From: an uncultured bacterium
GTDB lineage: Bacteria > Patescibacteriota > Dojkabacteria > J137
Assembly: GCA_963700155.1 (NCBI GenBank)
Contig: OY969472.1
Location: 808,690 to 872,689, forward strand
DNA: 64,000 nucleotides
Direction of reading: 5' to 3'
Positions 7,299-25,255 of this stretch are shown in pieces; position 1 is the stretch's first letter; the number at the start of each line of letters is the position of its first letter. The position numbers and the translations under genes were made by a program. The notes beneath the pieces are model-generated. The model worked only from the letters and a program-made list of their open reading frames with translations. It was not told the origin of the DNA and did not search any database.

Positions 7299-7370
7299 CG
7301 TAAAATCAACTTTTAAATATTATGTAACGATTTGCATTATATATCTTTAATCTTTGAGAATCTAGAATTA

Positions 7371-7934
7371 CTATTTTGAATTGCGTGAATTCCAAATTGT
7401 TTCTTTAAATCCACTCTTTAAATTAATATATCTTGCTAATGTAAAGAAGTAGTCTGAAAGTCTATTAACAAAAGGTAAAATCTCACTCTCGTCTTTTAAA
7501 GATATCTCTTCAAAATAATCAACTAGTCTTCTCTCTGCCCTTCTACAAATAGCTCTGCTCAAATGGAGACTTGAAGAAATATTGCTTCCTCCAGGCAGGA
7601 TAAAATTTTGAAGTGGCTCTAATTCTTTGTCCATTTTGTCCATTCTGGACTCTAATTTTTTGGTTTGAAGCTTTAGATTCAATTTTATCCTGCCCCCAGC
7701 CAAAATTCCTCCAATTGAAAATATTATGCTTTGTGTATCTTCAAGGTCTTTTTCAATTTTTTTTAATAACTTTTGCTCAGTTTTTTCTGAGATTACTTTA
7801 TAAATTACAATTCCGAGTGAAGCATTTAGTTCATCTAAACTGCCAAGTGCGTCAATTAATTTTGAAGCTTTTGAAATTCTTTTACCGATGATTCCGGTTT
7901 GTCCTTTATCTCCTGTTTTTGTGTATATTTTCAT
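7371..7934 (-). CDS. ATP:cob(I)alamin adenosyltransferase, PduO-type
   Basis: N-terminus MKIYTKTGDKGQTGIIGKRISK…DALGSLDELNASLG matches the PduO/MMAB family signature (IYTRTGDxGxT…DELN). Confidence 0.8.
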   Translation of the reverse strand: MKIYTKTGDKGQTGIIGKRISKASKLIDALGSLDELNASLGIVIYKVISEKTEQKLLKKIEKDLEDTQSIIFSIGGILAGGRIKLNLKLQTKKLESRMDKMDKELEPLQNFILPGGSNISSSLHLSRAICRRAERRLVDYFEEISLKDESEILPFVNRLSDYFFTLARYINLKSGFKETIWNSRNSK

Positions 7935-7993
7935 AATTAATTTATATCATATTTATGGTTTTAAACCTATATTCATGAATTTTAGAATTCGAG

Positions 7994-8024
7994 TGTTGCA
8001 GTGTCGGATATGTTCTTATATACT
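7994..8024 (+). promoter_or_regulatory. candidate sigma70-like promoter TTGCAG-17-TATACT upstream of the 893-aa membrane protein gene
   Basis: TTGCAG at 7994-7999 and TATACT at about 8017-8022 with 17-bp spacing. This would give a very short or leaderless 5'UTR if translation starts at ATG 8034. Confidence 0.3.
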
Positions 8025-10682
8025 GAATTTGTTATGAAGATCTTCAAAAAGATAAACGAAAACAGGAGGGCTTTTTTTATAGCTCTTATTCTTATATTTA
8101 ATATTCCTTTGGCGTTTGGATTAACTAATCAGGTAAAGGCATATGTAGTTGATGGTACTTCAGACAGAATTCTTAATACACCATCTTCTCAAAACTTTTT
8201 TAATATTCTATCTCCAGATGCTGCAAAATTGGCTACTTCAACGGGTTGTGATGCTAATCTTGGAACTGGAAGCTTTTTTGATGGTGTAACAGCTCTTGAA
8301 TATGGGACTTTGGGTTACGAAGCTCAAACAGCTTTGTGTTTGAATAAAGCTGGTGATTTACAGGCTTTGAATAATTATTTTGATACTAATTCAGGTGGAG
8401 TTATGAATGCTGTAAGCAATATTCAAGCTACTATTCTAGATCAAAGACCAGCGAGTGCTGGTTATTATTTGGAGCAAAAAGTGTATGCATTACAAACTGC
8501 TGGACAAGTTTATGCTCAGGACAATACTTCTCCTGCACCATATTTCCCATCTGGAACTGGTTTCCAATTACTCCAACCTATCCAAGCTTTCTGGGGCTGG
8601 GCAGTAAATATAGTTTATGGATTTTTAATATTGATAATTATTGGTATAGCTTTTGCAATAGTATTTAGGAATAATTTGGGAGGAGCCCAAGTTGTTACCA
8701 TACAAAGTGCGATTCCAAGCATAGCTTTAGCAATGGTACTTGTTCCTTTAAGTTATGCAATTTCCGGAGTTTTTATTGATGCAATAACTGTTGGGACAAA
8801 TGTTGTACATGCTTTCTTATTAGGACCTGGTGCTCCTGGGCAGGCGGTTTATGATAACAGAGGTACAGGAACAGACGGATGTACTGATACTACAGATAAT
8901 CCTTGTGATCGTGGACTTTATGCTGATGATGATCGAGTAAACTGGTTTAACATTCAAAAAATGGTTGATATAAGTAAACCAGTTGAAAATGCAGCAGCTT
9001 CTATTCCTGATCCTTTCACCGGTGCTAAAGGGGGTTTGGTTAACAACTTTTTTGTATTTAAAATTGTAAGTACAATTCTTAACTTATTTAGTGGAAGTGA
9101 TAAACCTTCTGCATATTGGTTTGGGAAGATAATTAATCTTGTAATTGGACTTACAATGATTTGGATAGGTCTAAAGATTTTACTAAAGTTGTTTCAAAAG
9201 TATTTAATGTTGATTTTGATGCCTATTATGTCGCCATTTATTTTTGCAACTGCTGCAATTCCCGGAAATGGGACTAAAAGTATAATTGAATATGTAAAGG
9301 TTTTAGGTTCTGCTTCTCTCTTTTATATTGTGACATATGCGATGTTTTTGTTAACTATTATATTTACTAGTGAATCTTTTCAAAACCAGGTGCCAGATAT
9401 ACAGAGTGGAGCTTTTGTGCCACCATTAATGGGATTTAAAGATATTTTCCAAAATACAGGAGCACTTGGGAGTGTTCCTTTAACTCATTTTATATTTACG
9501 TTGGTTGGACTTGGAATTTATTTCTCAATTCCTAAGGTTCTGGAAGGGATAGATTCTGCACTTGGTGTGCCAACAGCAATACCGAACTTTATCTTGACAC
9601 CTATTAATTCGTTTAGAGAATCAACTAATGTTACATTTAGAGCAGTACAGCAGACAGGAAGAGCTGCCTCTGGTCTTAATCAGTTGAGACAAACCGCAGT
9701 ACCTCAAGCAAGTAGAACCATCCAAAATAGGTTAGATAGGTTAAGGGGATTAAAACCTGGTGAGATAGGAACCTGGGAATACAGAAGAAAGAATGAATTA
9801 TCTCAGCAAAGGGCAAATGCTGAAAGAGAGAAAAGAAAAGCACAAAATATTTTGGAAAATCCTAACGCTCCAGAATCAGAAAAGAATGCTGCTCGAAATA
9901 CAATAGCAGCATCAAATCGAGCTATTAGTAATGTAGATAGAGAGGTTAATAGATATGGATTTGAAGGGGTTGGATATTCTAAGGAGACACCTGAACCTGA
10001 ATTGAAAGTTGAAGTAAAAACAAAGAATGGCTTAGGGGGACCAAATATATTAGGAATAGACTCAGGTTTTATTGAATCTATGACTAGTGGCCCTGGTGGA
10101 TTTATGCTTCCATTAGATATGACAATTGAAGCGGTAGGATTTTCTATGCCAACCAATCCAATTATAACTATATATAGAACAGATCAATTATCAGCAAGTG
10201 AATATAAAAAAATAAATATTTTTGCCGAATTAACAAAAACATCGGGTAATAGCTTAGAGCTATTTGGATCCGCAGATTTCCCATGGAAAAACGATACGTC
10301 ACCTTTATTGCCTATTAACAAAGATGCTAAGGTGGAATTAACAACAGATCTTAATTCAACTAATGCCGATAAATCTTTTAACCCTGGAACTTCTGGAAAC
10401 AAATTAGTTATTCCACTTAAAGTTTTATTTAAGAACTTTGACCCAAATACAAGAAAAGCAGTTTTAGGAGAACAGAGTCCAAGTGGTAATTATATTAAAG
10501 GTCAAATTCAAAGATTTAAAGGAGGAGCGTTAACTTTTGGTGATACAATAAAAAATGGAACTTATACTACTCCAGCTTTAACTCCTGTCAATACAAACAA
10601 ATTAGTCTTTGCAATTACACTTGGTGATGGAAGAATTGCAGAAAGTAATGCAGTAAGTCCAGTAATAACCATTGCTTCTTAA
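8001..10682 (+). CDS. large polytopic membrane protein: signal peptide + ~150-aa exodomain + ~7 TM helices + ~390-aa C-terminal coiled-coil/soluble domain; architecture reminiscent of VirB6/TrbL and Gram-positive ConG/TcpH
   Basis: Cleavable-looking signal MKIFKK…PLAFG, assuming ATG 8034 is the start; the track uses GTG 8001. TM segments include AFWGWAVNIVYGFLILIIIGIAFAIVF, FGKIINLVIGLTMIWIGLKILLKLF, LMLILMPIMSPFIFATAAIPG and VLGSASLFYIVTYAMFLLTIIFT. The C-terminal region is Arg/Gln/Asn-rich helical. No catalytic motif. Confidence 0.45.
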   Translation: MSDMFLYTEFVMKIFKKINENRRAFFIALILIFNIPLAFGLTNQVKAYVVDGTSDRILNTPSSQNFFNILSPDAAKLATSTGCDANLGTGSFFDGVTALEYGTLGYEAQTALCLNKAGDLQALNNYFDTNSGGVMNAVSNIQATILDQRPASAGYYLEQKVYALQTAGQVYAQDNTSPAPYFPSGTGFQLLQPIQAFWGWAVNIVYGFLILIIIGIAFAIVFRNNLGGAQVVTIQSAIPSIALAMVLVPLSYAISGVFIDAITVGTNVVHAFLLGPGAPGQAVYDNRGTGTDGCTDTTDNPCDRGLYADDDRVNWFNIQKMVDISKPVENAAASIPDPFTGAKGGLVNNFFVFKIVSTILNLFSGSDKPSAYWFGKIINLVIGLTMIWIGLKILLKLFQKYLMLILMPIMSPFIFATAAIPGNGTKSIIEYVKVLGSASLFYIVTYAMFLLTIIFTSESFQNQVPDIQSGAFVPPLMGFKDIFQNTGALGSVPLTHFIFTLVGLGIYFSIPKVLEGIDSALGVPTAIPNFILTPINSFRESTNVTFRAVQQTGRAASGLNQLRQTAVPQASRTIQNRLDRLRGLKPGEIGTWEYRRKNELSQQRANAEREKRKAQNILENPNAPESEKNAARNTIAASNRAISNVDREVNRYGFEGVGYSKETPEPELKVEVKTKNGLGGPNILGIDSGFIESMTSGPGGFMLPLDMTIEAVGFSMPTNPIITIYRTDQLSASEYKKINIFAELTKTSGNSLELFGSADFPWKNDTSPLLPINKDAKVELTTDLNSTNADKSFNPGTSGNKLVIPLKVLFKNFDPNTRKAVLGEQSPSGNYIKGQIQRFKGGALTFGDTIKNGTYTTPALTPVNTNKLVFAITLGDGRIAESNAVSPVITIAS

Positions 10683-10700
10683 ATTTAGTATAATTCTTCT

Positions 10701-11156
10701 ATGTCTGATAAAGATACTACTGAGAAAACAAAATATATTGAACCTAGAGGATTAGGTAAGATTAATCCTATTGAAGCTTTTCGGGAAAAAGGTCCGGCGG
10801 ATAAGTTTCTCGACTTCATGGCGACTAAAGTTGGAAAACCTGGTGATAAGGAAGGAGATGCTTTTGTTAATGTATGGGGTGGAATAATGAAATCTCCAGA
10901 GAAACTACTGAGACTTGGTATAAAGGGAATTGGTTTAGCTGCATATCCTTTATATGCATTTGAATTAGCAAAAAGTGCAGTTGATAGAAGTATTTCAGAA
11001 GGTAAAGCAAGAGAATCAGATAGAGTAAAATTGATTGAAGAAGAAGCGAAACGTTTAAAAGATAGGATGGAAAGTGAACAAAGTTATCAAGAGTTTCTTG
11101 GTAATTCAGATGATTTTGATACCCTTTTGCCTGCTCAAAAGAGAGGCATTCTCTGA
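10701..11156 (+). CDS. hypothetical protein (151 aa) with one amphipathic/hydrophobic segment
   Basis: ORF 19 nt after the upstream stop. Segment LRLGIKGIGLAAYPLYAFELA. No motif. Confidence 0.5.
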   Translation: MSDKDTTEKTKYIEPRGLGKINPIEAFREKGPADKFLDFMATKVGKPGDKEGDAFVNVWGGIMKSPEKLLRLGIKGIGLAAYPLYAFELAKSAVDRSISEGKARESDRVKLIEEEAKRLKDRMESEQSYQEFLGNSDDFDTLLPAQKRGIL

Positions 11157-13161
11157 CAGATTAGATATAACAGATCCTGAACTCAAAGATATAATTCAGA
11201 ATGAGAATATCTATGCTTGGCTAGGAATAAAACCTGATGATTCTTCTGATCCAGAAAAATTAAAGATAGCGATTGAAAATAGAAAAAAATCGACAAGCAT
11301 ACTTCTTGATTTCTTTACAGATCCTGAAATAGCTAATCTTGCAGAAGAAGATGACATCTCTTTCTTACAAAGTTTAATATCATTTCTTACTAATCCAAAT
11401 TCTGAAAATATTAGCTTTTCGCCAGAAGAACAAAAGAAAATTAAAAGTAAACTTCAAGAAAAAACCGGAGTAAGTGGTGAAGAATTTAATGCTAAAAATC
11501 CAATAATTTATAGATTTATTCATGACCTTGAAAAAATAATAAAAAAGATGCAAAGAGGAGAAGAAAGGTCTGATGTTCTAGATCGAATTGATAAAATCAC
11601 TTCTGCAGCTGAAAAAATTACAACAAATATAGACGCTTCAAATATGTATAAAGATAGATGGTTATCTGCAGCTGCTTGTACTGTGACTCCTTTTAATGAT
11701 AGATTGGGGACTCAAACTCAAATGCCGGAAGATCTTAATATAGAGTTTCATGATAATGGAATGTTTGGAGGAGTAGATCCATTTTTATTTCTTGGATTTG
11801 TTGAGGTGCCAAATCAACAGGAAATTGATGATAAAAAAATTTCATTGGATAATCTTGCATCAAGAATTCCTTCTAAAAATGCGATAGAAGATAATATGCA
11901 AGTTATAAAAGATAAGTATAATATGTCTCAAATTAGACAAAATTGTGAAGTTATCTCTTCTCTCTCTAGAAGGCAGGTAGAATCTATGCATGTTTTATCT
12001 CAGATATTTTTACAGCTTGCTACTACTCCACCATCAACACAGTTTCAGTTTAATTTTGAAGGTAAGACATTAAATATAAATAATGCAGCATTAATTGAAA
12101 AAATTAGAAAAGTAATTTTTCCTGAGAAAGTACAAGGTGAAAATGTTAATTCTTCTGATAATATTTTATTAAGAAAATTTGAATTAAATGAATTGATTAA
12201 AGAAGTTGTTGAATTAGTGTCGAAAGATCCAAATTATGTAACTTTATTAAATTTATTACAAACGCTAAATGATTTTAGCCTGATGACCGAAGACTTAACC
12301 TTCGGATTAAATGATAAAGAAGGTAAAAAAAATACAGCATTAAATTTTATAAAAGACTTAAATTATCCGAATCCAATTTTTGAAGTAATGTATCAACTCT
12401 ATGATGGAGATATGACTAAATTGGTACATGAAAAAAGAAGATATTTTAAAAAATCGAATAGATTATCTCCTTCAAGATCAATCTATGAAGGAATGGTGTC
12501 TGTAATTTCATCAAAACAAGGTATAGTACAGAAACTATCTGACTTAAGAAAGGATGATGGTAAATTTCAGAAAATAGTAGATTTGCATCATCAATATTTA
12601 CAACGAATATCTGATGGAGATTTTGTTCTATCAGAAAATATAGAAGAGAAAAGAGATCCACAGAACTTTATAAAACAGCTTCATGATTTAGCAATAAATC
12701 TAGTTGATAGAAAGTATCCTCAATTAGCAAGGATTATGGGTGATACTTATATTAGTTTTGACGACATTGTACCCCCGAAAATTAAGTCAACTACTAAAAT
12801 CGAAGATTTAGGTAAGTATCCCGATATTCAGAAATTAATAGGACAATTGACATTAATTTCTAAGATACTGTTTAATAGGCAAGCAGAAATTTTAACGAGC
12901 GAGTTTGGAGCTGAACAGGTCAATCCAAAAATACAACAAGAAATGTTTTTTATTGAGCATCACTTAAGAATATTGGTAGCTTTAGGATTTGACATTGATA
13001 ATATAAAAGGGAATAATGTTATAAACTCAAAGCCTTTAATGATGTATCTGAACGGTTTATCAGTAAATCCGATAAATTCAGGAAGATATAAAATAAAGGA
13101 TAATTGTGGTAAGAGCAATTTTACTTTTTCTAGAACTGAAGAGAAACTTAAAATAGCATAA
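11074..13161 (+). CDS. hypothetical large protein (695 aa), N-terminal hydrophobic anchor or signal, mostly alpha-helical
   Basis: GTG start at 11074 preceded by AGGA at 11064-67. It overlaps the upstream gene by 83 nt (translational coupling). N-terminus MNKVIKSFLVIQMILIPFCLL. No Walker A or other motif. Confidence 0.5.
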   Translation: MNKVIKSFLVIQMILIPFCLLKREAFSDRLDITDPELKDIIQNENIYAWLGIKPDDSSDPEKLKIAIENRKKSTSILLDFFTDPEIANLAEEDDISFLQSLISFLTNPNSENISFSPEEQKKIKSKLQEKTGVSGEEFNAKNPIIYRFIHDLEKIIKKMQRGEERSDVLDRIDKITSAAEKITTNIDASNMYKDRWLSAAACTVTPFNDRLGTQTQMPEDLNIEFHDNGMFGGVDPFLFLGFVEVPNQQEIDDKKISLDNLASRIPSKNAIEDNMQVIKDKYNMSQIRQNCEVISSLSRRQVESMHVLSQIFLQLATTPPSTQFQFNFEGKTLNINNAALIEKIRKVIFPEKVQGENVNSSDNILLRKFELNELIKEVVELVSKDPNYVTLLNLLQTLNDFSLMTEDLTFGLNDKEGKKNTALNFIKDLNYPNPIFEVMYQLYDGDMTKLVHEKRRYFKKSNRLSPSRSIYEGMVSVISSKQGIVQKLSDLRKDDGKFQKIVDLHHQYLQRISDGDFVLSENIEEKRDPQNFIKQLHDLAINLVDRKYPQLARIMGDTYISFDDIVPPKIKSTTKIEDLGKYPDIQKLIGQLTLISKILFNRQAEILTSEFGAEQVNPKIQQEMFFIEHHLRILVALGFDIDNIKGNNVINSKPLMMYLNGLSVNPINSGRYKIKDNCGKSNFTFSRTEEKLKIA

Positions 13162-13164
13162 ACT

Positions 13165-13362
13165 ATGGATGATCAACAAAAATTAATACAATCTAAGTTA
13201 GTTTTTCAGAAAATAATTGATAGATTTAGAGAGGAACTACTAGATAAAAAAGATAAAGAAGGAAATTTGCTATACTCTCCTGATGAAATAAATCAAATGA
13301 TTGATGATTTAGTTGAAGCTTTTAATAAAAAGAAAATTAATCTTGTTAAAAAACAAACATGA
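13165..13362 (+). CDS. small hypothetical protein (65 aa)
   Basis: Begins 4 nt after the upstream stop and ends with an ATGA overlap into the 1307-aa gene. Charged and helical. Confidence 0.4.
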   Translation: MDDQQKLIQSKLVFQKIIDRFREELLDKKDKEGNLLYSPDEINQMIDDLVEAFNKKKINLVKKQT

Positions 13363-16300
13363 GTAATCTTAATGTTGATTATTTAAGTATGCATGAGAAA
13401 GCTCCTAACTCTGGAGTTTATGAAGTTTTATTAGGTGTCCGATATCCATTCAATCCAGCTACAGCTTTAGTTCTCCAGGATGTTGCAAAAGAATATGGTT
13501 ACGAAGTAACAGTAAACACAGGTACTGGAGAAATTAAAATTGAGAATTTAAATGCTGAAAATGGAATGACTATTAAGCAACAAATAGAAAATTTACAACG
13601 TGGAGTTGCTAATAATGTAAATAGTGCTCAGAATGTAAATTTAAATTTTACTACTCCAGTAACTTTTGCTACGGGTAGTGTTAATGCTCCAACTTCATAT
13701 AAAGATACTTTGTGGGAACGTTTTACTAGAGATAAAGATAAAGTTAGAGCAGAAAACAGGTTACAGCAATTACTTTTAAATACTAGTGATGCAGATATCA
13801 ACCATATAATTCAAGGAGGGATTGATAGGGTAGCTTTTCTAGATATTATGAATGCTGCTGAGCTTACACCAGTTGATGCAGATAATATTATAAAGTTCAT
13901 AGTATTACTTCAATCCAATCCTGATTATAAATTTGTAAAAAGTCCACTTAGAAAAAAAGTCTTAGATATAATATTAAAATTCGCTTACACAGAATTATTT
14001 CAATCTTCAGCGAAAAATTATTTCCAACAAATTATATCTCAACTAGGTACTCCACCAAATCTTGACTATAGAAAGCTAGATATTTCATCAATTAATATGC
14101 TTTTTGAACCAGTTGGATTAAGTTTTTATACTTTATCAGAAGAACAAAGATCATTTTTCGCAGATCTTTTAAGAAATATAAAATCACAACCTAAAACACC
14201 ACTAAGTCCTGAAGTTGATAAATTACTGGAAATTTTAGCTATGCCTGTAGGTATAAGTATAATTGAAACAGGTTCACTACCAAATGAAAGTATTGCACAT
14301 ATAATTAAAACTTTAAATTATAGTCCAGACGCTGAAGATGAACTAAGTAATCTGTTAAAGATAGAGAAAATCGATCCTAAATTCAGAAGCATATATAGAA
14401 ATCTCAGAATACTTTCTTTATTAGATTTATCCCCCGGAATGCTTGAAACATTAATATTCAAAGAAGATTTATCACCTGAAGGTAAAGATCAAATTGTTAT
14501 TGATATAATTGATAGAATAAATGAGAAAATTCCTGAATATCTATATAGGTCTCAATCGAGACCAAGAGATAGTCTTTTATATGGAGAAACTTTAGGTTTT
14601 CTTCAATATTTGTATCAAGATCCTTCAGGGAATCCAGGGATAACTCCAATTAGAGAATCATTTTTGAACGAATTAGCTAAGAAGTTTAATGCTAATCCTT
14701 TTGATGAGTTTCAAAAAGGTATGTTTGAAGTAATTCTGGAAATAATGAATTCTGGATTAGTGGTTGGGTATAAGAAAGAAAATGCTGATGAAAGAAGACA
14801 GGATAGAGTTGGAGAAGTTCTTAAACAAACTAAATCTCCAAAAACAAAATTAACACTTCCTTCGTATTCTAGAAGTAATTTTAAACCAACTTTACAAGTT
14901 AGTATCACTGGACTACCTGAGGATTATGAAGCTATTTCATTAAACTCTAAGGGAACTATCCCTGAGCTTGTCAATTTATACATTCAAAATCCTGAAGAAT
15001 TTGCTACAAATGCTAATTATGAGGATATTAGATTTAACATTCTTAAAATTATTGAATTTTTACAGTTGGAAGGAATATATGACTATATTGTTGATATACT
15101 TCAGAATTCAAGTGATGAGGATAATGCATATATAAGTCTTGTTGAGACCTTCTATAATACAGAACCTGTTAATAACCAAAGAATATATCCATATATTGAA
15201 AATTTAACAAATATTTTTAAGACATGTTTCAAATCTGGATTTGCTGATACTGATGAAGCATCAAAATATATTTCAGCAAGATTTATTGTAGATATGTTAG
15301 CAAAGCGTACTAAGAAAGATGAAGCTGCATCTAGGTTAGAAACTCCAGCTAATAAGTATGGGATAACAAAATTGTTAAACATACCTTCAGATTTACAAGG
15401 GATAATTCAAGAAGTATCAGATGCACAAGGTAATATAGATCTAACTAAACTTACTAGAATTCAACGGGAAATATTTATAAAAAGAATTAGAACTTTGGAA
15501 TTACAAAGAGGTATTATAAAGATTTTAGAAGATAAAAAAGATTCTCTAACTCCTGATGATATTGATAATCTCATTGATCAAGCTACACGAGCGTTTATTT
15601 CTAATGAAGGACTTGATGGAAAATCAGTTTTTGATATTAATGAGTCTAGTATTAATTTTAAAAAGAACTTGAAAGTCTTTATTGATGGGTTGTTGAATCC
15701 ACCAGATATAACTACAGGGTTAGGTATTAATTTTGAAAGTGAAAAGGAAAAAACTTTAGATACATTAGAGACAATGTACATTGTAATAGGAAAGAAAGGG
15801 AAACTTTTTGAGCTTAGACAAGGTCAAATTTATGATGATCTTGATAAAGTTGAAGAAGATATTAAGGTATTTGTTGAGAATTATAGAGAAGATATCCTTA
15901 ATAAAAATATTGAAATGGAACAAGGTAGGGATCTTGCTAATAATATGGAAGATTCGATAAATCACCTAAAGAATAAACTTAAAAGTCACTATGAGGAAAA
16001 TTATAAAGATGCCCCAAGTAGTGACTTTAGAGATACCTTTAGAAAAAATAGTCGGGTAAAAAATATAAAAAATACATACTTTAAAAGCTTCTTAAATGGT
16101 GTGAATATTACAACTAAAGAAGAATATTCGAATTATTTAGCTTTTGTTGATGTTATTGGAAATTTAATTGACTTAGAAAGTGAAAGAGATTATGAAATTT
16201 TATTTTATCTCTTAGTTGTTCCTGTCGGTATTTTTACGAGTACAGATTATAAATTAAGGTTTAAAGACAAAAAGACGAAGAAGGGTAATAGTTATCATGA

Positions 16301-17282
16301 AGAATTGAAGGGTTATAAACCAGCACCTCCGAGATCAGGTTATAGCGAAAAGGAGATTAAGAATTTAGCCAATCATCTATTAAAAGCTCAACTTAGAGCT
16401 GCAGTTGTTATTTATGAAGAACAAATTGCCCAGCAAAGAGAAGCTTCTAGACTTAATGAAAGAGATAATGAGAAGAAAGATAATAAAAAAGAATCTCATT
16501 CGAATCTTCAAAATACCCCAGAAACAATTAATATTAATGGTACTGAGGTAAAATCTCAACAAAATAAACGTTCGGTAAAAAAGTTAGCGCAATCTATTAT
16601 TAGAAATAGAGGTAAAATTGGAGCTGTGGCTGGAGAGGTTGCAGGAGGTGCATTTGTCTTAGGAATTGCTTCAACTGGAAATATTCCTGGAGCTCTAATC
16701 GCAGGAGAACTTTTCTTCCTCCCGGTAAGTTCAGCAAGAATTTTGCAGATAGGAGCCGACATGAGAAAAGATGATAGAAAAAAATATATTGAAACAATAA
16801 ATGCTAATGTAGAACTACTTAGACAGGATCTCCAGGGATTACCTGAAGTTGTTAGAAATCATACTCAAAATCTTATTAATGCAAAATTTGCTGAAAAATA
16901 TGTAGAAGAATCAAGAAAGAATTTAAAAAATATGAGAGAAAATATTTATCCTAAGATTCAATCTAAGTTAGATAAATCAAAAGCAAGTGAAATTCAAGAA
17001 ATAAATTTAAACTTAGTACCGAAAGCCACGAGAGTTATAGATAAATCTATGTCAGAAATCATGTCATTATTAAGAGATAATGCTTCAGGTAAGCCAATAG
17101 ATCCAGCAAAACTTGAAAAGAGAATTGTTGATTTATTAAGAAAAATAAATGAAGCTATGTTTGAGTTAACAACAATGCTGGAAAATTTAATAAATGATGT
17201 TAGATTAAGAAAGAAAAACTGGGGCGAGAATTGGTACAAAGAACTAAGAATTTTAGAAGAGTCTTATGGAAGTGCTGCTTAA
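13359..17282 (+). CDS. giant hypothetical protein (1307 aa), helical/repetitive, C-terminal glycine-zipper membrane hairpin followed by a coiled-coil
   Basis: No P-loop or enzymatic motif. Segment IGAVAGEVAGGAFVLGIASTGNIPGALIAGELFFLPV (GxxxG-rich). Downstream heptad-like region (…LQGLPEVVRNHTQNLINAKFAEKYVEESRKNLKNMREN…). Confidence 0.55.
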   Translation: MSNLNVDYLSMHEKAPNSGVYEVLLGVRYPFNPATALVLQDVAKEYGYEVTVNTGTGEIKIENLNAENGMTIKQQIENLQRGVANNVNSAQNVNLNFTTPVTFATGSVNAPTSYKDTLWERFTRDKDKVRAENRLQQLLLNTSDADINHIIQGGIDRVAFLDIMNAAELTPVDADNIIKFIVLLQSNPDYKFVKSPLRKKVLDIILKFAYTELFQSSAKNYFQQIISQLGTPPNLDYRKLDISSINMLFEPVGLSFYTLSEEQRSFFADLLRNIKSQPKTPLSPEVDKLLEILAMPVGISIIETGSLPNESIAHIIKTLNYSPDAEDELSNLLKIEKIDPKFRSIYRNLRILSLLDLSPGMLETLIFKEDLSPEGKDQIVIDIIDRINEKIPEYLYRSQSRPRDSLLYGETLGFLQYLYQDPSGNPGITPIRESFLNELAKKFNANPFDEFQKGMFEVILEIMNSGLVVGYKKENADERRQDRVGEVLKQTKSPKTKLTLPSYSRSNFKPTLQVSITGLPEDYEAISLNSKGTIPELVNLYIQNPEEFATNANYEDIRFNILKIIEFLQLEGIYDYIVDILQNSSDEDNAYISLVETFYNTEPVNNQRIYPYIENLTNIFKTCFKSGFADTDEASKYISARFIVDMLAKRTKKDEAASRLETPANKYGITKLLNIPSDLQGIIQEVSDAQGNIDLTKLTRIQREIFIKRIRTLELQRGIIKILEDKKDSLTPDDIDNLIDQATRAFISNEGLDGKSVFDINESSINFKKNLKVFIDGLLNPPDITTGLGINFESEKEKTLDTLETMYIVIGKKGKLFELRQGQIYDDLDKVEEDIKVFVENYREDILNKNIEMEQGRDLANNMEDSINHLKNKLKSHYEENYKDAPSSDFRDTFRKNSRVKNIKNTYFKSFLNGVNITTKEEYSNYLAFVDVIGNLIDLESERDYEILFYLLVVPVGIFTSTDYKLRFKDKKTKKGNSYHEELKGYKPAPPRSGYSEKEIKNLANHLLKAQLRAAVVIYEEQIAQQREASRLNERDNEKKDNKKESHSNLQNTPETININGTEVKSQQNKRSVKKLAQSIIRNRGKIGAVAGEVAGGAFVLGIASTGNIPGALIAGELFFLPVSSARILQIGADMRKDDRKKYIETINANVELLRQDLQGLPEVVRNHTQNLINAKFAEKYVEESRKNLKNMRENIYPKIQSKLDKSKASEIQEINLNLVPKATRVIDKSMSEIMSLLRDNASGKPIDPAKLEKRIVDLLRKINEAMFELTTMLENLINDVRLRKKNWGENWYKELRILEESYGSAA

Positions 17283-17298
17283 ATTTTAAAATAAAAAA

Positions 17299-17727
17299 AT
17301 GTATTTAGATGAAGCAATATTAAGAATATTATATACAATTCCAGTTGAGGTGGATATTACCTCGGAAAAAAAGACATATCTTATGACTTGTTTGCAGGCT
17401 GGTATTGAGGCATTGATTGTTTTTAAGCTTTCTAATCCAAGCGAGTATTCAGAAGAAAGTTTCAATGAAAAAGCAAATCTTTTAAATTCAGAATTAGAAA
17501 AAGAAGATCCTAATATTGATTTATTAATGGGCTTTATGCGAAATCTTCAAGAGAATAAAAATTTTAATTCATTATACGAAAGTTATTTAACTGAAATTAA
17601 TAAAGATATTTTTGAAAAAGCCTTTCAGAGACAGCCTCAACTTCAAGATGAAATAGTACAATATAGTAAAGGTGTTAGAGATAAAGCAATCAAAGAATAT
17701 ATTGAAACATTTGTTGATGTAGAATAA
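17299..17727 (+). CDS. hypothetical protein (142 aa)
   Basis: ORF 17 nt after the 1307-aa gene. Acidic and helical. Confidence 0.45.
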   Translation: MYLDEAILRILYTIPVEVDITSEKKTYLMTCLQAGIEALIVFKLSNPSEYSEESFNEKANLLNSELEKEDPNIDLLMGFMRNLQENKNFNSLYESYLTEINKDIFEKAFQRQPQLQDEIVQYSKGVRDKAIKEYIETFVDVE

Positions 17728-17748
17728 TCACAGTTAAAGCTTTACAAC

Positions 17749-18081
17749 ATGGATTCTAACGAAAATTCAACACAATCATTAGCTCAAAAAACACAATCTG
17801 CAATTAAAACTGCAAAAAAGATTAAGACCATTTGGTTTATTTTAACTTCAGTTGGACCTCTTTTGATTATAGTAATTATTTTTGGATTCCTTTTTTTAAA
17901 CATAAAAGCAAATCCTGTTGATAATGTTGATATACTTTATCAATGCCAAATTGCAGGTCAGCCTTTAGATAATACATGTATAAAAAACCTTAAAGAAAAA
18001 TTTAGAGATCAAATTTCTTCAGATGATCCAGATATTCAGGGAGGATCAGCAAATCCCCACCCTACTTATCCTCGAACTTAA
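17749..18081 (+). CDS. small single-pass membrane protein (110 aa)
   Basis: TM segment IWFILTSVGPLLIIVIIFGFLFL. Last gene of the + operon. Its stop abuts the stop of the convergent gene. Confidence 0.45.
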   Translation: MDSNENSTQSLAQKTQSAIKTAKKIKTIWFILTSVGPLLIIVIIFGFLFLNIKANPVDNVDILYQCQIAGQPLDNTCIKNLKEKFRDQISSDDPDIQGGSANPHPTYPRT

Positions 18082-20379
18082 TTAAGTATCTGTTGGAGTT
18101 GGTTCAACGAATTCAGCATCCTCTGCTCCATTATCATTTTTTACTCCTTGGAAAGGCTGAGGCGAAGATGGGGCTTGGGGTTCAGGTTGTTGAGGTTGGA
18201 TAGGCGCTTTTGATTGAGTTGCTTCTGTCGCCTCAGCCTGCAAACTTGGTTGTTCAGTAGTATTTTCTAAAGGTTGGGGTTGGTTTTCTACAACATTACT
18301 CTGCCCTGTTTCTCCAGGAGTTTCATTAAGATTTTGATCTACCACAGGCCTAGGTTGAAGCTGTTGTTCAGTAATATTATCAGGTCGTACCTCTTGGAAA
18401 GGTGTAATCTCATTATTATTTTCTTTTGGTTCTAATCTTTCTTGTTTAGGTTCACCTCCCATAACAACATTATTGTTTTGAGTCCCAGTTTCAATTGAAC
18501 TTGGTCCCGGTTGAATTGGTTGAGGTTGAATTACTTCTTCAGGTGGTTGTAAAGTTGGTGTTTCAGGAACTGGCTGACCCTTTCCTTGCCAGTAATTTTG
18601 TAATGATTGTTCAATTTCCTCTGTTGTTGGTGCTTGATAATTTTCACTTACTGTTGGCAGATTCTGAGGCGGTTCGCTCGGTGAATATGGTTGTAATGGT
18701 GGCAATGGCTCTGTAGAAACGGGTTGAAATTGTCCAAAATCCTGCGAACCGACTCCATTAAAACCTTGTATCCCATTCTCTTCATTTTTCTTTTTATTCT
18801 TCTTCCAAATTGTATAAAGAACCCAAGGTACAATTAATAAGATTAAAAATAAACCACAAACAAGGAATAATATTATCAAACTGTTTTTAGGAATTTCTCT
18901 TCCTAAGATCACAACATTTTCTTGTGTTAAGGTTTGTTCCTGTGGTTGTGTATTTATTGTAAATGTCCAGTTTATTGAAGCAACTTTTCCATTAGAATCT
19001 TTATAACTTACATTTACTGAATGTTTGCCATCTTCTAAAGGTTTGCTTATATCACAAGTGAAGCCAGACTCAGTTACTTTGCACTGTTTTGTTATATCAA
19101 CATCGTTAAGTAAAATTTTAATACTGCTTGTTACAACTTTCGAATCACTTGAAGGTACAAATTCTCCGGATAGTTGAGGTGATGATACATTTATTTCTGA
19201 TGTACTATCTGGTTTAAGATTTATTATTAATGGTTCACTTTGTGTTTCTTGGGTATTATTTTGAATCAAGAATGAATCCGAGACTCTATTAACTTCTGAA
19301 TTCTGTTTATCTGTAACTGTTATTCTTAAATAATAAATATCATCCGAGATTCTTGAAACGTCCCAAGTATAAGAATTGAATGTAAGTTCCTCTTCTTTAC
19401 TTAATGTTGCGATGGTTTTCCAATTTTTATCTGTATCTTTTGAATATTCTAAAACAATTTTTGCTACTCCATCTGGTTCATTAATATTCCACTTAATATC
19501 ATTACTAGAACCTTTCAATATTGAGTTATATACAGGATAAAGGATATCAATCTTTGTAGGTGTATTGTTTGTTTCCGGTTGTTCTGGAGTACTTGGTTCC
19601 TCAGGTGTTTGAGGTGTTTCTGGATTTGTGCTTGGAGGTGGCGTTGTTGGCTGATCTTTTACAATACTTAATGTAAATTCCTGTGTCGCACTTCCACTTA
19701 TTCCATCATCTACAGCAACTTTTATTTTATAATTTGCTTGATTTACTCCGGTAGGTAATGTTTTTGAATTGCTATTAGTTTTTATTAACCCAGTCTGTGA
19801 ATTTATCGATATAAAATTCGTTCCATAAACTAAGCTATAAGTTAAATGATCATTATCAGGATCATATGCTGTAACTTGATATTGCCATGAATCAGATTCG
19901 TGAATAGTTAAATTTGAAGGATTTGATGTAATTGTTGGGAGTGAATTATGATTTACAATTTTTACTATTCTTGAATTACATGCAGAATAAGAAGAACTCC
20001 CATTTTTCATAGCTGCACAAATCTGTAAGCAATAATTCCCATCAGGCAAATTTGTTGAACTCTGGGTATTATTAGTATTCCAACTTAATGAATTATCCTG
20101 ATTTTTATTTGACGTTCCACTCAAATTTGCATTGATGGTTCCATAATTTACATTCTCACAACTTGCGGCATCAAATAATTTCGCTGTGTATTGAATAGTT
20201 GATTGATCGTCATCCCACATTCTCCAAGTAATATTTATTGCCCCGCTTACTTTTTGATTTGCAGCTGGAGACGTAACATAAAAAATATCGTCAGGATCAC
20301 CTATCTCATAAGCTTTTATAATATTGAACCCGAGAAAGCTGATTAAAATTGTTAAAACTATTATTAATATTTTTTTCAT
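18082..20379 (-). CDS. type-I membrane surface protein: signal peptide, Ig-like/cadherin-like domains, Pro/Thr linker, single TM, ~250-aa cytoplasmic Pro/Gln-rich tail
   Basis: Signal MKKILIIVLTILISFLGFNIIKA. Motif …DNDHLTYSLVYGTNFISINSQTGLIK… (putative Ig / dystroglycan-type cadherin-like). TM IILFLVCGLFLILLIVPWVLYTIW followed by KKNKKKNEE and P/Q-rich low-complexity sequence to the C-terminus. Confidence 0.6.
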   Translation of the reverse strand: MKKILIIVLTILISFLGFNIIKAYEIGDPDDIFYVTSPAANQKVSGAINITWRMWDDDQSTIQYTAKLFDAASCENVNYGTINANLSGTSNKNQDNSLSWNTNNTQSSTNLPDGNYCLQICAAMKNGSSSYSACNSRIVKIVNHNSLPTITSNPSNLTIHESDSWQYQVTAYDPDNDHLTYSLVYGTNFISINSQTGLIKTNSNSKTLPTGVNQANYKIKVAVDDGISGSATQEFTLSIVKDQPTTPPPSTNPETPQTPEEPSTPEQPETNNTPTKIDILYPVYNSILKGSSNDIKWNINEPDGVAKIVLEYSKDTDKNWKTIATLSKEEELTFNSYTWDVSRISDDIYYLRITVTDKQNSEVNRVSDSFLIQNNTQETQSEPLIINLKPDSTSEINVSSPQLSGEFVPSSDSKVVTSSIKILLNDVDITKQCKVTESGFTCDISKPLEDGKHSVNVSYKDSNGKVASINWTFTINTQPQEQTLTQENVVILGREIPKNSLIILFLVCGLFLILLIVPWVLYTIWKKNKKKNEENGIQGFNGVGSQDFGQFQPVSTEPLPPLQPYSPSEPPQNLPTVSENYQAPTTEEIEQSLQNYWQGKGQPVPETPTLQPPEEVIQPQPIQPGPSSIETGTQNNNVVMGGEPKQERLEPKENNNEITPFQEVRPDNITEQQLQPRPVVDQNLNETPGETGQSNVVENQPQPLENTTEQPSLQAEATEATQSKAPIQPQQPEPQAPSSPQPFQGVKNDNGAEDAEFVEPTPTDT

Positions 20380-21959
20380 AAAACTCCTTTATTGCTAATT
20401 AATGTTTTTACATTTGTTTCTAATGTTGTCAATTGTCCTTGTGATACTGAATTCCCCTCAATTACTTTATTAAATGCCTCTTTTATATCCATTCCTTTTA
20501 CCATGTACCAAGTTTTAAGATTAGGAAGCGAATCATTATATATTTTTAGATATTGGTCATCAGATAATTCAGTTGCCATATCTTTTCTTGGATATAAAAT
20601 ACCAAAATATCCTTCATTTGTTTTGATATTGTCACTAAGTTCTTTTAATTTATCAGATTGAGTAATCCACTGTAGGAACTTCCAGGCTTCTGTTGAATTA
20701 GGTCTGTTTAATGCAACCATGTTTCCCCAATACTCAGGCCAGTTGATTACTGCTTGATCTTGTCCTTGTAGTTGAGGCAATTGGGCAACACCAATATTCA
20801 AGTTTAATCCATATTGCTCATTGTAATAAAGGATTTCTCTTAATCTATAGCTAGGTACAATAATCATTGCAACGTTTCCTTCTAAGAATGCTGCTGAATC
20901 ATTTTTTATATCTCTGCTCCATGTTCCTGTAGAGCTATTGGCAAAGTCCTTGTAGAATTGGAATGCTGAAACGGAATCTGTGTCTTCTGCAAATGTGGGG
21001 ACATCTTTGCTATCTGTAACACTAACTCCATTTTGGAATAATAATACATTCAATACATCAAATGAGTAAGAAACATTTGAAGATAATCCTCCTGCGAATC
21101 CTGCAACTTTTATTGTGTTTTTTTCTTTTGTTGTTAAGTTTTGAGCTAGACTTTTAAAGCTTGGCCAATCAGTTGGGACGTTTAGCACTGCTTTTGAAGC
21201 AAGAATATCTTTATTATAAACAACGGCTAATGTATCCAGCCAAAGGGGAACACCATTTATTGTGCCATTATGTGCAAAATCTTGTCCAACAACTTCATAA
21301 AAAGTATTGTTAAATGTTTCAGAATCATAAGATGTACTTGATTTGACATATCTCTCATAATCTCCAGCCCATGTACTACTTACCGAAAAAATATCAGGTA
21401 TTTGAACGGGATCGTTGGCTTTTAATATTCGGTCAAGTTCTGTTTTATAAGTTAAAGCTGCATCATCAGATGCTGTGTCAGCGGGAATCTTATTAGCATA
21501 TTCAATTGTTACATTTGGGTTCTCAGTATTATATTCATCCAATAAAGGCTGAACTTCAGAAGGATCCATAAATGCTCCCCACCATTGCAGGACTACTTTT
21601 TCTGATGATGTATTATTTTGATTCCCGCTGTTGTTACTGAAAAGTAAATTTATAACAAAAATCAAAACTATTATGCCAACGATCCCGATTATTATATATG
21701 GTAAGAATTTCCGTATATCTAATTTGTTTTTTTCAGGCTCGGAATTATTGACTAATGAGTTAGGGTTAAAGTTTGTTGGTGGCGGTGGGTTATAAGTCTG
21801 TTCAGGAATAATTGGTTGTGGCTGAACTGGTTGAAATTGTTGTGCAGTTTGGAATTGCTGATCTGTTGGCTGATACTGCTGTGGAGGTAAATCCACAGGT
21901 TGTGGTTCTACCAGATTTTGTGGTTGTTGTACGTTGTTAAAATTATAATTATCACTCAT
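20376..21959 (-). CDS. membrane-anchored extracellular solute-binding protein (family 1 SBP-like) with ~75-aa cytoplasmic Pro/Gln-rich N-terminal extension
   Basis: N-terminus …PQPVDLPPQQYQPTDQQFQTAQQFQPVQPQP…. TM FLPYIIIGIVGIIVLIFVINLLF, then VVLQWWGAFMDPSE…ENPNVTIEYANK…, typical of sugar-type ABC substrate-binding proteins. ATGA overlap with the downstream gene. Confidence 0.6.
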   Translation of the reverse strand: MSDNYNFNNVQQPQNLVEPQPVDLPPQQYQPTDQQFQTAQQFQPVQPQPIIPEQTYNPPPPTNFNPNSLVNNSEPEKNKLDIRKFLPYIIIGIVGIIVLIFVINLLFSNNSGNQNNTSSEKVVLQWWGAFMDPSEVQPLLDEYNTENPNVTIEYANKIPADTASDDAALTYKTELDRILKANDPVQIPDIFSVSSTWAGDYERYVKSSTSYDSETFNNTFYEVVGQDFAHNGTINGVPLWLDTLAVVYNKDILASKAVLNVPTDWPSFKSLAQNLTTKEKNTIKVAGFAGGLSSNVSYSFDVLNVLLFQNGVSVTDSKDVPTFAEDTDSVSAFQFYKDFANSSTGTWSRDIKNDSAAFLEGNVAMIIVPSYRLREILYYNEQYGLNLNIGVAQLPQLQGQDQAVINWPEYWGNMVALNRPNSTEAWKFLQWITQSDKLKELSDNIKTNEGYFGILYPRKDMATELSDDQYLKIYNDSLPNLKTWYMVKGMDIKEAFNKVIEGNSVSQGQLTTLETNVKTLISNKGVL

Positions 21960-21993: not shown

Positions 21994-23487
21994 TTAAACA
22001 CTTCCTGATGGTAGGATATCTAAAACGTTTACTCCAAGTATTCTTAAGATTAATACGCTAAATATTAAGACTGCAACTCCAGTTAGTGTAGCGATTAGCC
22101 TTTCTCTTGCTTTTTTTACACCTTCTTCATCACCTCTTTGATATTGAATTCCTACAAGAATTAATTCGAGCAATGCCACTCCACCGACAACTCCTAATGC
22201 AATTCTAATCAACCCAGTAATTATTCCTAATGGACTTGGGTCTAAGCAGCCGATTGCTGTTGGAATGCCACCACTAGCTCTACATTGAGCAATAAAGTCA
22301 GCATTTCCCTTATCAAGATTTTGACTAGCATTTATATATGCTAATGTATCGGCTACACTGTTATTAATTAAATCTGTTCTGTTGATAAAATTTGTACTAC
22401 CAGTGTCGCAAGTTATTAATTGTTGTTTATTTTCAGGATTAGTATTTTCATCTTCAATAAACATAGCTTCATTGTTAGTAAAACATTTCTGGCAACTTAG
22501 AGTATTACTGTCTAATGCTTCAGTACTTATAATAAAATAATCCTTTCCACTAGAAGTAATTTTTGTGTATGGTACAAACTGATTATCTGCAACATTATTT
22601 ACAACTGCACATCCTTTTGAAGCACATTTGAAATCAGAACCTGACATAGTCCCATCAAGTGATACATTATTAGCCGGGTATGATTGTCCCAATCCTAAAC
22701 CTAGTTGAGGTTTAATTATTCCCCCATCTGAAAAACTAAATTCAGATAAATCTGTAGTGTATCCACTTCCAGTACTTTTAATTCCAACAATTATATTACC
22801 CTGGTTTACACTATTAAGTGCTTCTTCAAAAGAGGAAGTATGTGAAGCTTTTTGAGAGGTATTAGGTATAATTACATTTCCTGATTCATCTTGACAACCT
22901 CCAGAAGTTGGATTTGGATCCCACTTTGTTGGGTTAAGACCAGAACCCACTCGGCAGCAGACACCATTAATATAAGCCTCTGCAGAACTTTCCTGTGCTA
23001 CATTTACAAATTTAAAATCTGTTGGACAGCACCCAGTTGAATATCCTACGAAAGTAGTGATTTTATGAGGTGCTTCTTGTGCAGTCCATCCTTGTGGACA
23101 TGCCCTTGGTATTATTTGCTGGTCGTTATTTGAGCCAATAGAATTTAAATTTTGATTAGGAAAGTTTTTAAGTTCGCTGTTAGTTAAATATCTGACTGTG
23201 AAATTTGTATACTCTTGATTTACACATACTTTGTTAGCATTATCTCCATATGTATCAGATATACTATTAATAAAGCTTTCTTGATTTAAATCTAAATATT
23301 GTGAAGCATTATCAGCTAAATTTAATAGGTTATATTTTCCAGCGGGACAATCTCCATAATTTCTGACGCATTGACTTCCAAACCCATTTAGCTGTGCTTC
23401 GGCTTTGCCAGAAAATCTAGTTGCTCCAACAATAAATAGCACACTTACTATTATCAACAATATAATACTAACTTTTCCTTTAAGCAT
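21994..23487 (-). CDS. secreted Cys-rich protein (497 aa) with C-terminal double-TM hairpin (pilin/VirB2-like topology)
   Basis: Signal MLKGKVSIILLIIVSVLFIVGA. About 20 Cys in the exodomain. C-terminus …GLIRIALGVVGGVALLELILVGIQYQRGDEEG…LIATLTGVAVLIFSVLILRILGV (two hydrophobic helices separated by a short charged loop). Confidence 0.5.
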   Translation of the reverse strand: MLKGKVSIILLIIVSVLFIVGATRFSGKAEAQLNGFGSQCVRNYGDCPAGKYNLLNLADNASQYLDLNQESFINSISDTYGDNANKVCVNQEYTNFTVRYLTNSELKNFPNQNLNSIGSNNDQQIIPRACPQGWTAQEAPHKITTFVGYSTGCCPTDFKFVNVAQESSAEAYINGVCCRVGSGLNPTKWDPNPTSGGCQDESGNVIIPNTSQKASHTSSFEEALNSVNQGNIIVGIKSTGSGYTTDLSEFSFSDGGIIKPQLGLGLGQSYPANNVSLDGTMSGSDFKCASKGCAVVNNVADNQFVPYTKITSSGKDYFIISTEALDSNTLSCQKCFTNNEAMFIEDENTNPENKQQLITCDTGSTNFINRTDLINNSVADTLAYINASQNLDKGNADFIAQCRASGGIPTAIGCLDPSPLGIITGLIRIALGVVGGVALLELILVGIQYQRGDEEGVKKARERLIATLTGVAVLIFSVLILRILGVNVLDILPSGSV

Positions 23488-23508
23488 TTTATTACTTTAA
23501 AATATTAT

Positions 23509-24714: not shown

Positions 24715-24773
24715 TTAGTAAAATTTTGTATAAAAGTTTTCTTATACATAATAATGTAAATGAAGAAGTTTAA

Positions 24774-25190: not shown

Positions 25191-25255
25191 GTTATTAAGA
25201 AAATTATGAAAGATGATATTGAAAATAATAGTAGAAAGATTGGTTTTTCTATAGA

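Follow-up and report, generated by a model that had tools for sequence, protein, structure and literature searches.

The type IV secretion systems (T4SSs) of Patescibacteria are derived from the monoderm MPF-FATA class, and in them VirB6 is reported to be scarce or absent in whole classes, its scarcity in Microgenomatia 'suggesting extreme sequence divergence', and homologues of VirB8 to be largely undetectable (PMC12102498). Table S1 of the same study includes two VirB4-positive Dojkabacteria genomes. The T4SS was shown to be essential for epibiotic growth in one species tested, what it does has been described as "completely unknown", and the delivery of effectors into host cells has been put forward as speculation (PMC11665869). 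The T4SS of Southlakia epibionticum, which is essential for epibiotic growth, possesses a VirB2-like pilin array. An 'extended VirB6' class, exemplified by F-plasmid TraG and the VirB6 paralogues of Rickettsiales, combines a membrane core with a large hydrophilic C-proximal domain (PMC12857230). The locus described here is a block of seven co-directional open reading frames (ORFs) in a 64-kb stretch of DNA (64,000 nucleotides; assembly GCA_963700155.1, contig OY969472.1, positions 808,690 to 872,689 of the forward strand) from an uncultured member of Candidatus Dojkabacteria; this whole stretch is referred to below as the window, and positions are numbered along it. Three components make up the block: a class-wide T4SS-type gene (ORF1), a gene for a widespread small bitopic protein (ORF7) and an insert that is both lineage-specific and hypervariable (ORF2/3, ORF4, ORF5 and ORF6). 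We favour, with reasonable confidence, an overall explanation in which a VirB6-like ORF1 and a conserved ORF7 enclose a hypervariable slot linked to a T4SS.

The seven forward-strand ORFs and the ATGA overlap at 13359 had been recognized in an initial annotation and were confirmed at exactly the same coordinates and lengths: 8001-10682, 10701-11156, 11074-13161, 13165-13362, 13359-17282, 17299-17727 and 17749-18081, encoding 893, 151, 695, 65, 1307, 142 and 110 aa, respectively. The spacers measure 18 nt (ORF1/ORF2), 3 nt (ORF3/ORF4), 16 nt (ORF5/ORF6) and 21 nt (ORF6/ORF7), and ORF4 is joined to ORF5 by the ATGA overlap (13359-13362). No terminator-like site was found within 10682-18081 and no Shine–Dalgarno-like motif upstream of the starts, while a promoter scan was uninformative in this AT-rich DNA (84 sites seen versus 88 expected). 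As far as sequence alone can tell, a single coupled operon would be consistent with the spacing of 3-21 nt, with the ATGA overlap and with the absence of internal terminator-like sites. Scans of all seven products against Pfam, NCBIfam, PHROGs and PADLOC gave no significant match, and neither Walker A nor HExxH motifs are present in any of them, which agrees with the earlier statement that the products carry no recognizable family or Walker A motif.

The gene that probably links the block to secretion is the first one:

8001..10682, forward strand: ORF1, an extended VirB6-like polytopic membrane protein

Hydropathy and an AlphaFold2 (AF2) model predict a signal or first transmembrane (TM) segment at residues 24-42, an exodomain of about 160 aa (43-200) and a membrane core (204-510), which in the model are followed by a C-terminal extension of about 380 aa composed of a basic helical region (559-652) and a beta-rich domain (667-891). 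Six or seven hydrophobic spans are predicted (24-42, 204-222, 235-259, 377-420, 438-456 and 492-510), with loops at 43-203 and 260-376, so that ORF1 has the at least five transmembrane helices and the large extracytoplasmic loop by which VirB6/TrbL proteins are recognized. The polytopic topology and exodomain of the initial annotation therefore stand, but its cytoplasmic C-terminal domain does not, because residues 377-420 may form one span or two and the side of the membrane on which this domain lies is not secure. The public annotation places the start at 8010 (890 aa), and M12 at 8034 is a further possible start.

The homologues of ORF1 form approximately 89 clusters, those with names belonging to Candidatus Dojkabacteria, and were located in 29 genome loci. 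A profile of the ORF1 family retrieved 3,178 cluster representatives, 1,674 of them at E<=1e-30, and most of the 3,178 are proteins of 490-650 aa that span the exodomain and membrane core alone. ORF1 thus belongs to an unannotated family of polytopic membrane proteins that is very large within the candidate phyla radiation (CPR) and of which the Dojkabacteria members are an extended form.

The resemblance of this family to T4SS subunits is one of predicted structure and, weakly, also one of sequence. No Pfam VirB6/TrbL match was obtained with ORF1, 49 homologues or 56 distant relatives, nor did any other family recur, and a PDB sequence search with the family profile returned nothing. Alignment of the family by hhalign to the single sequences of TrwI (R388) and PrgH (pCF10) was not significant (probability 0.7% and 0.3%, respectively). 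In an NCBIfam scan of the 56 relatives, the top four families (NF045848, NF045889, NF045890 and NF046089, which comprise MMCAP2_0566, Mbov_0396 TM, pLS20_p028 and CD3337/EF1877) were all monoderm conjugation transmembrane proteins. Three of the 56 relatives matched NF045848 (MMCAP2_0566), with a best E-value of 2.2e-5, and ORF1 itself matched it at E 0.076 with 12.3 bits against a curated cut-off of 90. No match of the ORF1 family reaches the curated NCBIfam cut-offs, the similarity being convergent and sub-threshold, and by sequence ORF1 does not qualify as a strict member of the VirB6 family. These matches to monoderm conjugation proteins agree with the MPF-FATA origin of the Patescibacteria T4SS (PMC12102498).

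The genomic neighbourhood of ORF1 relatives points in the same direction. Five relatives from outside Dojkabacteria were examined in their genome context (loci fetched from other genomes are labelled L001-L042), and four of them (P0090 in L004, P0092 in L037, P0091 in L038 and P0161 in L042) directly follow T4SS_pilin genes and/or lie beside genes for PrgI, a TraC-like protein and a VirB4-type ATPase. The Daviesbacteria locus L004 comprises five T4SS_pilin genes, the ORF1 relative, unannotated genes of 1471 and 433 aa, and then PrgI, TraC-like and VirB4-type ATPase genes; L042 comprises six T4SS_pilin genes, the ORF1 relative, unannotated genes of 1385 and 465 aa, and the same PrgI, TraC-like and VirB4-type ATPase genes. 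In L038, the ORF1 relative adjoins PrgI, TraC-like, VirB4 and M23 peptidase genes close to dnaN, and in L037 it directly follows two pilin genes. The fifth relative, in L041, shows a Dojkabacteria-like layout. L004 and L042, both T4SS loci of Microgenomatia, agree in gene order; their large genes (5176-9591 and 9860-14017, respectively, both on the reverse strand) occupy the same place between the ORF1 relative and PrgI, and no mutual similarity of the products is detectable; the 433- and 465-aa neighbours match each other at E 1e-23.

Neither the window nor, in any Dojkabacteria locus, the 10 kb to either side of ORF1 contains a VirB4, PrgI or TraC-like gene, and the system is therefore dispersed in this class; within the 64 kb, the pilin-like domain protein D497 is the only T4SS-type gene near ORF1. 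Overall, ORF1 is probably a VirB6-type component of a T4SS, and VirB6-type families, which the initial annotation had named as targets for a search, proved to be the right ones. ORF1 would then fulfil the VirB6 role, at the channel or pilus base, in a Patescibacteria MPF-FATA-like T4SS, the channel role being one that we infer.

To establish how the block is placed in other genomes, 36 loci with ORF1 homologues were gathered and the proteins of the window were mapped onto them. Upstream of ORF1, in divergent orientation, nearly all loci carry a Cob-adenosyltransferase-like gene, a P-type ATPase gene and the gene for alanyl-tRNA synthetase (AlaRS). Downstream, past an interval of variable length, most loci carry homologues of D765, D527, D401 and D497, followed by DNA ligase. 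The gene at the downstream end of the variable interval in the window, and those beyond it, are as follows:

17749..18081, forward strand: ORF7, a 110-aa bitopic protein with a charged N-terminal tail and, by hydropathy, a TM segment at residues 30-48
18082..20379, reverse strand: D765, a conserved partner that has, besides a signal peptide and Ig-like domains, a TM segment at 502-520 and a tail rich in Pro and Gln
20376..21959, reverse strand: D527, a conserved partner with a Pro/Gln-rich N-terminal tail, a TM segment at 89-107 and a MalE-like solute-binding domain
21994..23487, reverse strand: D497, a conserved partner in which a signal peptide precedes a domain of about 400 aa and two C-terminal TM segments form a hairpin similar to VirB2/T4SS pilin
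23509..24714, reverse strand: D401, a conserved partner that is anchored at its N-terminus and has no recognized family

As judged from gene order, the ORF1 site is a fixed core-genome site across Dojkabacteria. The initial annotation had proposed an accessory apparatus and had named conservation of the block in a core-genome context as an outcome that would speak against it; ORF1 was found to be conserved in exactly such a context, class-wide, and the accessory character is retained for ORFs 2-6, which are variable. Members of the ORF7 family were detected in seven loci, and in nearly every locus the last forward-strand gene before D765 encodes a small protein with a charged N-terminal tail and one TM segment, ORF7 being the shortest of this class. 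ORF7 probably belongs with the conserved set, as the local copy of this small bitopic protein. In Dojkabacteria, ORF1 shares its fixed site with the genes of four conserved envelope proteins, among them D497 with its terminal VirB2-like pilin hairpin, and in the proposed mechanism the VirB4 ATPase module would be encoded elsewhere in the genome.

Several observations concern these flanking genes and the loci themselves. ORF7 and D765 converge at 18081/18082, where their stop codons abut without a single base between them, so that a terminator cannot be accommodated between these two transcription units. The match of D497 residues 425-482 to T4SS_pilin (PF18895) is weak (E 0.0019), and the same weak match is given by its L001 homologues (18975-20174 and 20187-21401). 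The pilin-like hairpin of D497-type proteins ends secreted proteins of 400-500 aa, while the pilins of other CPR classes are 100-150 aa long, so that the former look like 'giant pilin' fusions. The Pro/Gln-rich tail of D527 lies on the cytoplasmic side of its N-terminal TM anchor. The gene is conserved beside the pilin-like genes in all Dojkabacteria loci, and a MalE-like domain is unusual company for genes of a T4SS type. D497, D401 and the DNA ligase gene (21994-27094) are all on the reverse strand in the window and on the forward strand after D527 in most relatives (compared with L001, L003, L017, L021 and L023), which suggests that this part of the genome has been inverted or rearranged locally. 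In L001 (AP024679.1), AlaRS is divided among three called genes of 47, 244 and 301 aa (4819-6732) in a genome that otherwise looks complete, which suggests frameshift errors in the assembly and calls for caution regarding ORF lengths from this locus. The Dojkabacteria-specific ORF1 and its synteny are also found in many metagenome-assembled genomes titled 'uncultured Candidatus Saccharibacteria bacterium' (binchicken/SRP co-assemblies; L011, L012, L018-L020, L023, L026-L031, L033, L034 and L036, including OZ246402.1, which carries P0013); these labels look like generic mis-assignments.

Between the conserved flanks, the content of the locus changes from genome to genome. The interval from ORF1 to D765 measures 0.53-0.85 kb and holds one small gene in seven loci, 1.8-3.7 kb in eight, and 5.7-7.5 kb in four (L005, L007, L015 and the window). 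The slot contents belong to many mutually unrelated families, none of which were merged by iterative hidden Markov model (HMM) searches. In the window, apart from ORF2/3, they are:

13165..13362, forward strand: ORF4, a highly charged 65-aa orphan with no homologue in any locus
13359..17282, forward strand: ORF5, a charged protein of 1307 aa, effectively an orphan
17299..17727, forward strand: ORF6, a soluble, acidic 142-aa protein (isoelectric point (pI) 4.5) that follows the large protein

The rate of change is best seen against the two closest genomes compared, L006 and L005, with which identity amounts to 78 and 72% for AlaRS, 71 and 70% for the P-type ATPase, 62 and 49% for ORF1 and only 25 and 27% for ORF2/3, and in which ORF4, ORF5 and ORF6 are undetectable. 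ORF5 returned a self match only among 5.8 billion proteins and nothing from the JGI metagenomes, its sole trace of relatedness being 24% identity over 197 aa (E 8e-4) with its positional counterpart in L007 (1175 aa). For the large neighbours of the ORF1 relatives in L004, L042 and L041, no relationship to ORF5 or among themselves could be detected. ORF6 has a single homologue, a protein of 157 aa encoded at the corresponding position in L007. Seven genomes have an essentially empty slot, and ORFs 2-6 are thus dispensable for the conserved module; we are highly confident that these ORFs constitute a hypervariable accessory slot. A separate observation from the same slot is an ORF of >2,263 aa downstream of the ORF1 homologue in L026 (5257-12045, forward strand), with a charged fraction of 0.13 and an FTGSVAV..S.MCVYV motif repeated at least six times, which looks like a giant repetitive surface protein.

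Such variability raises the question of whether ORFs 2-6 are merely unrelated island content, a mobile-element, prophage or defence remnant caught in a recombination hot spot beside ORF1. The varying length and content of the interval, and the fact that ORF5 and ORF2/3 find only themselves in a large database, would fit this explanation. However, Pfam, PHROGs and PADLOC revealed no integrase, transposase, phage or defence family (the PADLOC defence models gave one spurious 14-bit match and otherwise nothing), the base composition and third-position GC content (GC3) are native, tandem repeats and a flanking tRNA are lacking, gene order in the slot is partly kept within a sub-clade, and ORF2/3 tracks ORF1. 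We regard island content as very unlikely. An ORF6N remnant, which had been noted nearby in the initial annotation, was not found among the ORFs scanned, and the DNA of the block contains no tandem or internal repeats.

ORF2 and ORF3 require separate consideration, since they represent a single gene whose reading frame is broken:

10701..13161, forward strand: ORF2/3, an ancestral gene of about 819 aa, split into 10701-11156 and, in frame +1, approximately 11155-13161
11131..11156, forward strand: the frame break from frame 0 to +1, located by three-frame translation and gapless alignment with relatives across the junction

ORF2 and ORF3 align colinearly and without gaps to one in-frame gene (L006 7462-10062). 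The family has six members of 818-919 aa, namely this copy and those of L005, L006, L007, L009 and L013, and all five relatives carry the gene as a single uninterrupted ORF. Because both parts match one in-frame gene, the residues with which 'ORF3' begins at its GTG codon, and the TM segment that they seem to form, stem from translation out of frame; what had earlier been interpreted as a coupling joint, an 83-nt overlap with a GTG start, is the frame break itself. By this alignment the block contains six genes, not seven. In the public annotation the downstream part is entered as a separate protein of 683 aa. The frame may have changed at the A-run in caaaag (11136-11141) or at the stop context ctc-tga-c (11151-11157). 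A programmed +1 frameshift of the prfB type at AGAGG-N4-CUC-UGA-C was considered and rejected, given that the five homologues are in frame and that CUC cannot re-pair in +1. The break is either a real mutation or an assembly error; no other split genes are evident among the approximately 35 genes of the window with clear families.

The product of ORF2/3 is large, charged and predicted to be helical. Its homologues are confined to one Dojkabacteria sub-clade, where the gene invariably comes first after ORF1, and they share only 17-27% identity with the copy in the window, compared with 71-78% for AlaRS. No match was obtained in Pfam (searched with six homologues), in a PDB profile search or in the JGI metagenomes, and a large-database search returned the protein itself only.

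The combined results bear on the proposal of the initial annotation that the block encodes a single, previously undescribed envelope-spanning system of seven genes, here taken to be one unrelated to known secretion machines. That no product has a significant family would suit such a system, but ORF2 and ORF3 are one gene, ORF1 and the ORF7-like proteins alone are conserved while the others come and go, and ORF1 relatives sit in recognizable T4SS loci. A novel seven-gene system is accordingly extremely unlikely; what survives of the proposal is the link to secretion-like, host-interaction machinery, through the VirB6-like ORF1, and the single apparatus gives way to a composite block.

The large slot proteins share a number of general properties. 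They are 25-35% charged, no N-terminal hydrophobic segment was detected in them, and several contain Gly/Ala-rich, moderately hydrophobic hairpins. In ORF5, where no signal-like N-terminal segment was detected either, hydropathy places a Gly/Ala-rich, weakly hydrophobic hairpin at about residues 1087-1130, so that the hairpin of the initial annotation is retained while the glycine zipper is not, the strict GxxxGxxxG pattern being absent. The small proteins that follow the large ones are acidic (pI 4.1-4.6), with proteins of 143-167 aa in this position in L007, L015 and L041, and the order large protein, acidic protein of about 145 aa, ORF7-family protein is common to the window, L007 and L015. 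ORF6 is on these grounds a candidate chaperone, adaptor or immunity partner.

The features of ORFs 2-6 that bear on a role as T4SS substrates are indirect, namely N-termini in which no hydrophobic, signal-like segment was detected, hydrophobic hairpins, small acidic neighbours and hypervariability. We consider it a possibility, albeit a tentative one, that these ORFs encode T4SS substrates or host-interaction factors, in line with the published speculation on effectors (PMC11665869). In this case the T4SS-like machine would handle ORF2/3, ORF4, ORF5 and ORF6 as substrates or host-contact factors specific to the lineage; these proteins, some with membrane-active hairpins, could be effector- or translocator-like, accompanied by chaperone, adaptor or immunity partners, and would be diversifying under pressure exerted by the host bacterium. 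A more far-reaching combination of claims is correspondingly more doubtful. It holds that the slot beside the VirB6-like gene is an effector or host-specificity locus, that the signal-less giants (ORF2/3, ORF5 and the 1385-1471-aa proteins of L004 and L042) are T4SS substrates or translocators put into or delivered to the host bacterium, that their acidic neighbours are chaperones, and that the ORF1 family is the missing VirB6 of Microgenomatia and Dojkabacteria.

Four points limit the substrate explanation. Secretion of ORFs 2-6 is something that we infer from the features above; their fast divergence could equally result from helical scaffold proteins being under little constraint; the broken frame of ORF2/3 may mean that it is a pseudogene in this genome; and a single-sequence AF2 model of ORF5 (residues 1-1200) was unusable, with a predicted local distance difference test score (pLDDT) of 33, no reliable secondary structure being predicted for this protein.

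The same hairpins and neighbours could be read as polymorphic toxin–immunity modules, the large proteins being membrane-depolarizing toxins directed against competitors or the host, with ORF6 and/or ORF7 conferring immunity. The Gly/Ala-rich hairpins of ORF5 and several positional counterparts, the small acidic or single-TM partners downstream, and the hypervariable content beside a conserved secretion gene are in keeping with this. Yet Pfam, NCBIfam and PADLOC detected no toxin or immunity family, the divergence extends over the whole length rather than joining a conserved N-terminus to a swapped C-terminal toxin domain, the hairpin of ORF5 lacks the strict zipper pattern, and ORF7-like proteins also occur where no large protein is encoded. 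Toxin–immunity modules therefore appear improbable.

A somewhat stronger competitor, although also an unlikely one, is that ORFs 2-6 are fast-evolving structural or assembly parts of the machine, such as scaffolds in the cytoplasm or at the membrane that replace missing VirB8/VirB10-type parts, and that they co-evolve with the variable C-terminal extension of ORF1. It draws on the tight packing of these genes with ORF1, on L009, where ORF2/3 still adjoins ORF1 despite a rearranged downstream context, on the near absence of detectable VirB8 in Patescibacteria (PMC12102498), and on the gene order shared by the window, L007 and L015. The seven Dojkabacteria loci with short intervals encode no ORF2/3- or ORF5-like protein, so that the machine evidently exists without one, and turnover among unrelated slot families of the kind observed would be unusual for obligatory subunits. 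The explanation that we retain remains that of a VirB6-like ORF1 and a conserved ORF7 flanking an accessory slot.

The window as a whole is a typical streamlined CPR chromosome of Candidatus Dojkabacteria (GC about 0.31), which also encodes AlaRS, P-type ATPases, an ATP-dependent DNA ligase, UvrC, a class II ribonucleotide reductase (RNR) and a Mur ligase. ORFs 2-7 have a GC content of 0.23-0.36 compared with a mean of 0.317 for the window, and on the basis of this native composition a foreign origin is rejected for them. An ORF of 189 aa at 31534-32103 (forward strand) stands apart, with a GC content of 0.446 and GC3 of 0.453 against a gene mean of 0.317 (standard deviation 0.035); it has a signal-peptide-like N-terminus, no Pfam family and no credible Rfam match, and may be a foreign gene. 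The class II RNR (35263-38967, reverse strand, 1234 aa) gives barrel matches in two stretches, a TACO1/YebC_N-like match at 304-367 and a TSCPD domain, which suggests an insertion in the catalytic domain, possibly intein-like.

If the ORF1 family is the missing VirB6, a family of >3,000 clusters gains an annotation, and the T4SS loci of Microgenomatia and Dojkabacteria can be properly delimited. The hypervariable slot would at the same time provide a testable list of candidate substrates or host-specificity factors for this machine. Should the link not be real, what remains is merely a conserved membrane protein followed by lineage-specific orphans. The points to be carried forward are the probable VirB6 identity of a large unannotated family and the slot as a source of candidate cargo.

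Pairs of a translocator or effector with a small acidic chaperone are familiar from the type III secretion system, as in IpaB/IpgC, and Dot/Icm employs the IcmS–IcmW adaptors. The slot may be likened to such pairs in that a small acidic protein of approximately 140-170 aa comes after a large helical one that contains a hydrophobic hairpin in its interior, but the likeness is architectural only, without homology or a secretion signal. Among polytopic inner-membrane subunits at the base of a stalk or channel, VirB6/TrwI of R388 and DotA of Dot/Icm show no sequence or profile similarity to ORF1, which differs from them in its additional N-terminal exodomain of about 160 aa and C-terminal extension of 380 aa, and in Dojkabacteria also in its separation from VirB4. 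The monoderm MPF-FATA proteins (PrgH of pCF10, MMCAP2_0566, Mbov_0396 of Mycoplasma integrative and conjugative elements, pLS20_p028 and CD3337/EF1877) are reached by weak, convergent HMM matches from the ORF1 family; they are, however, components of mobile conjugative elements that carry relaxases, whereas ORF1 is encoded on the chromosome throughout the class, in a housekeeping context. With the 'extended VirB6' class, ORF1 shares the combination of a core and a large C-proximal domain, although no homology of the extension was detected.

The closest relationship is with the T4SSs of Patescibacteria themselves, as found in Saccharibacteria (Southlakia epibionticum), with which the present system has in common VirB2-like pilin domains, a probable VirB6-type protein, a chromosomal location and a context without relaxase. 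Dojkabacteria differ from Saccharibacteria in carrying the pilin-like hairpin as a fusion with proteins of about 400-500 aa and in having the VirB6-type gene split from VirB4 and followed by a hypervariable slot. The pilin fusion, the separation of VirB6 from VirB4 and the slot are not described for Patescibacteria T4SSs in PMC12102498, PMC11665869 or PMC12857230. The system is a divergent form of the Patescibacteria T4SS already described (PMC12102498), rather than a new kind of machine.

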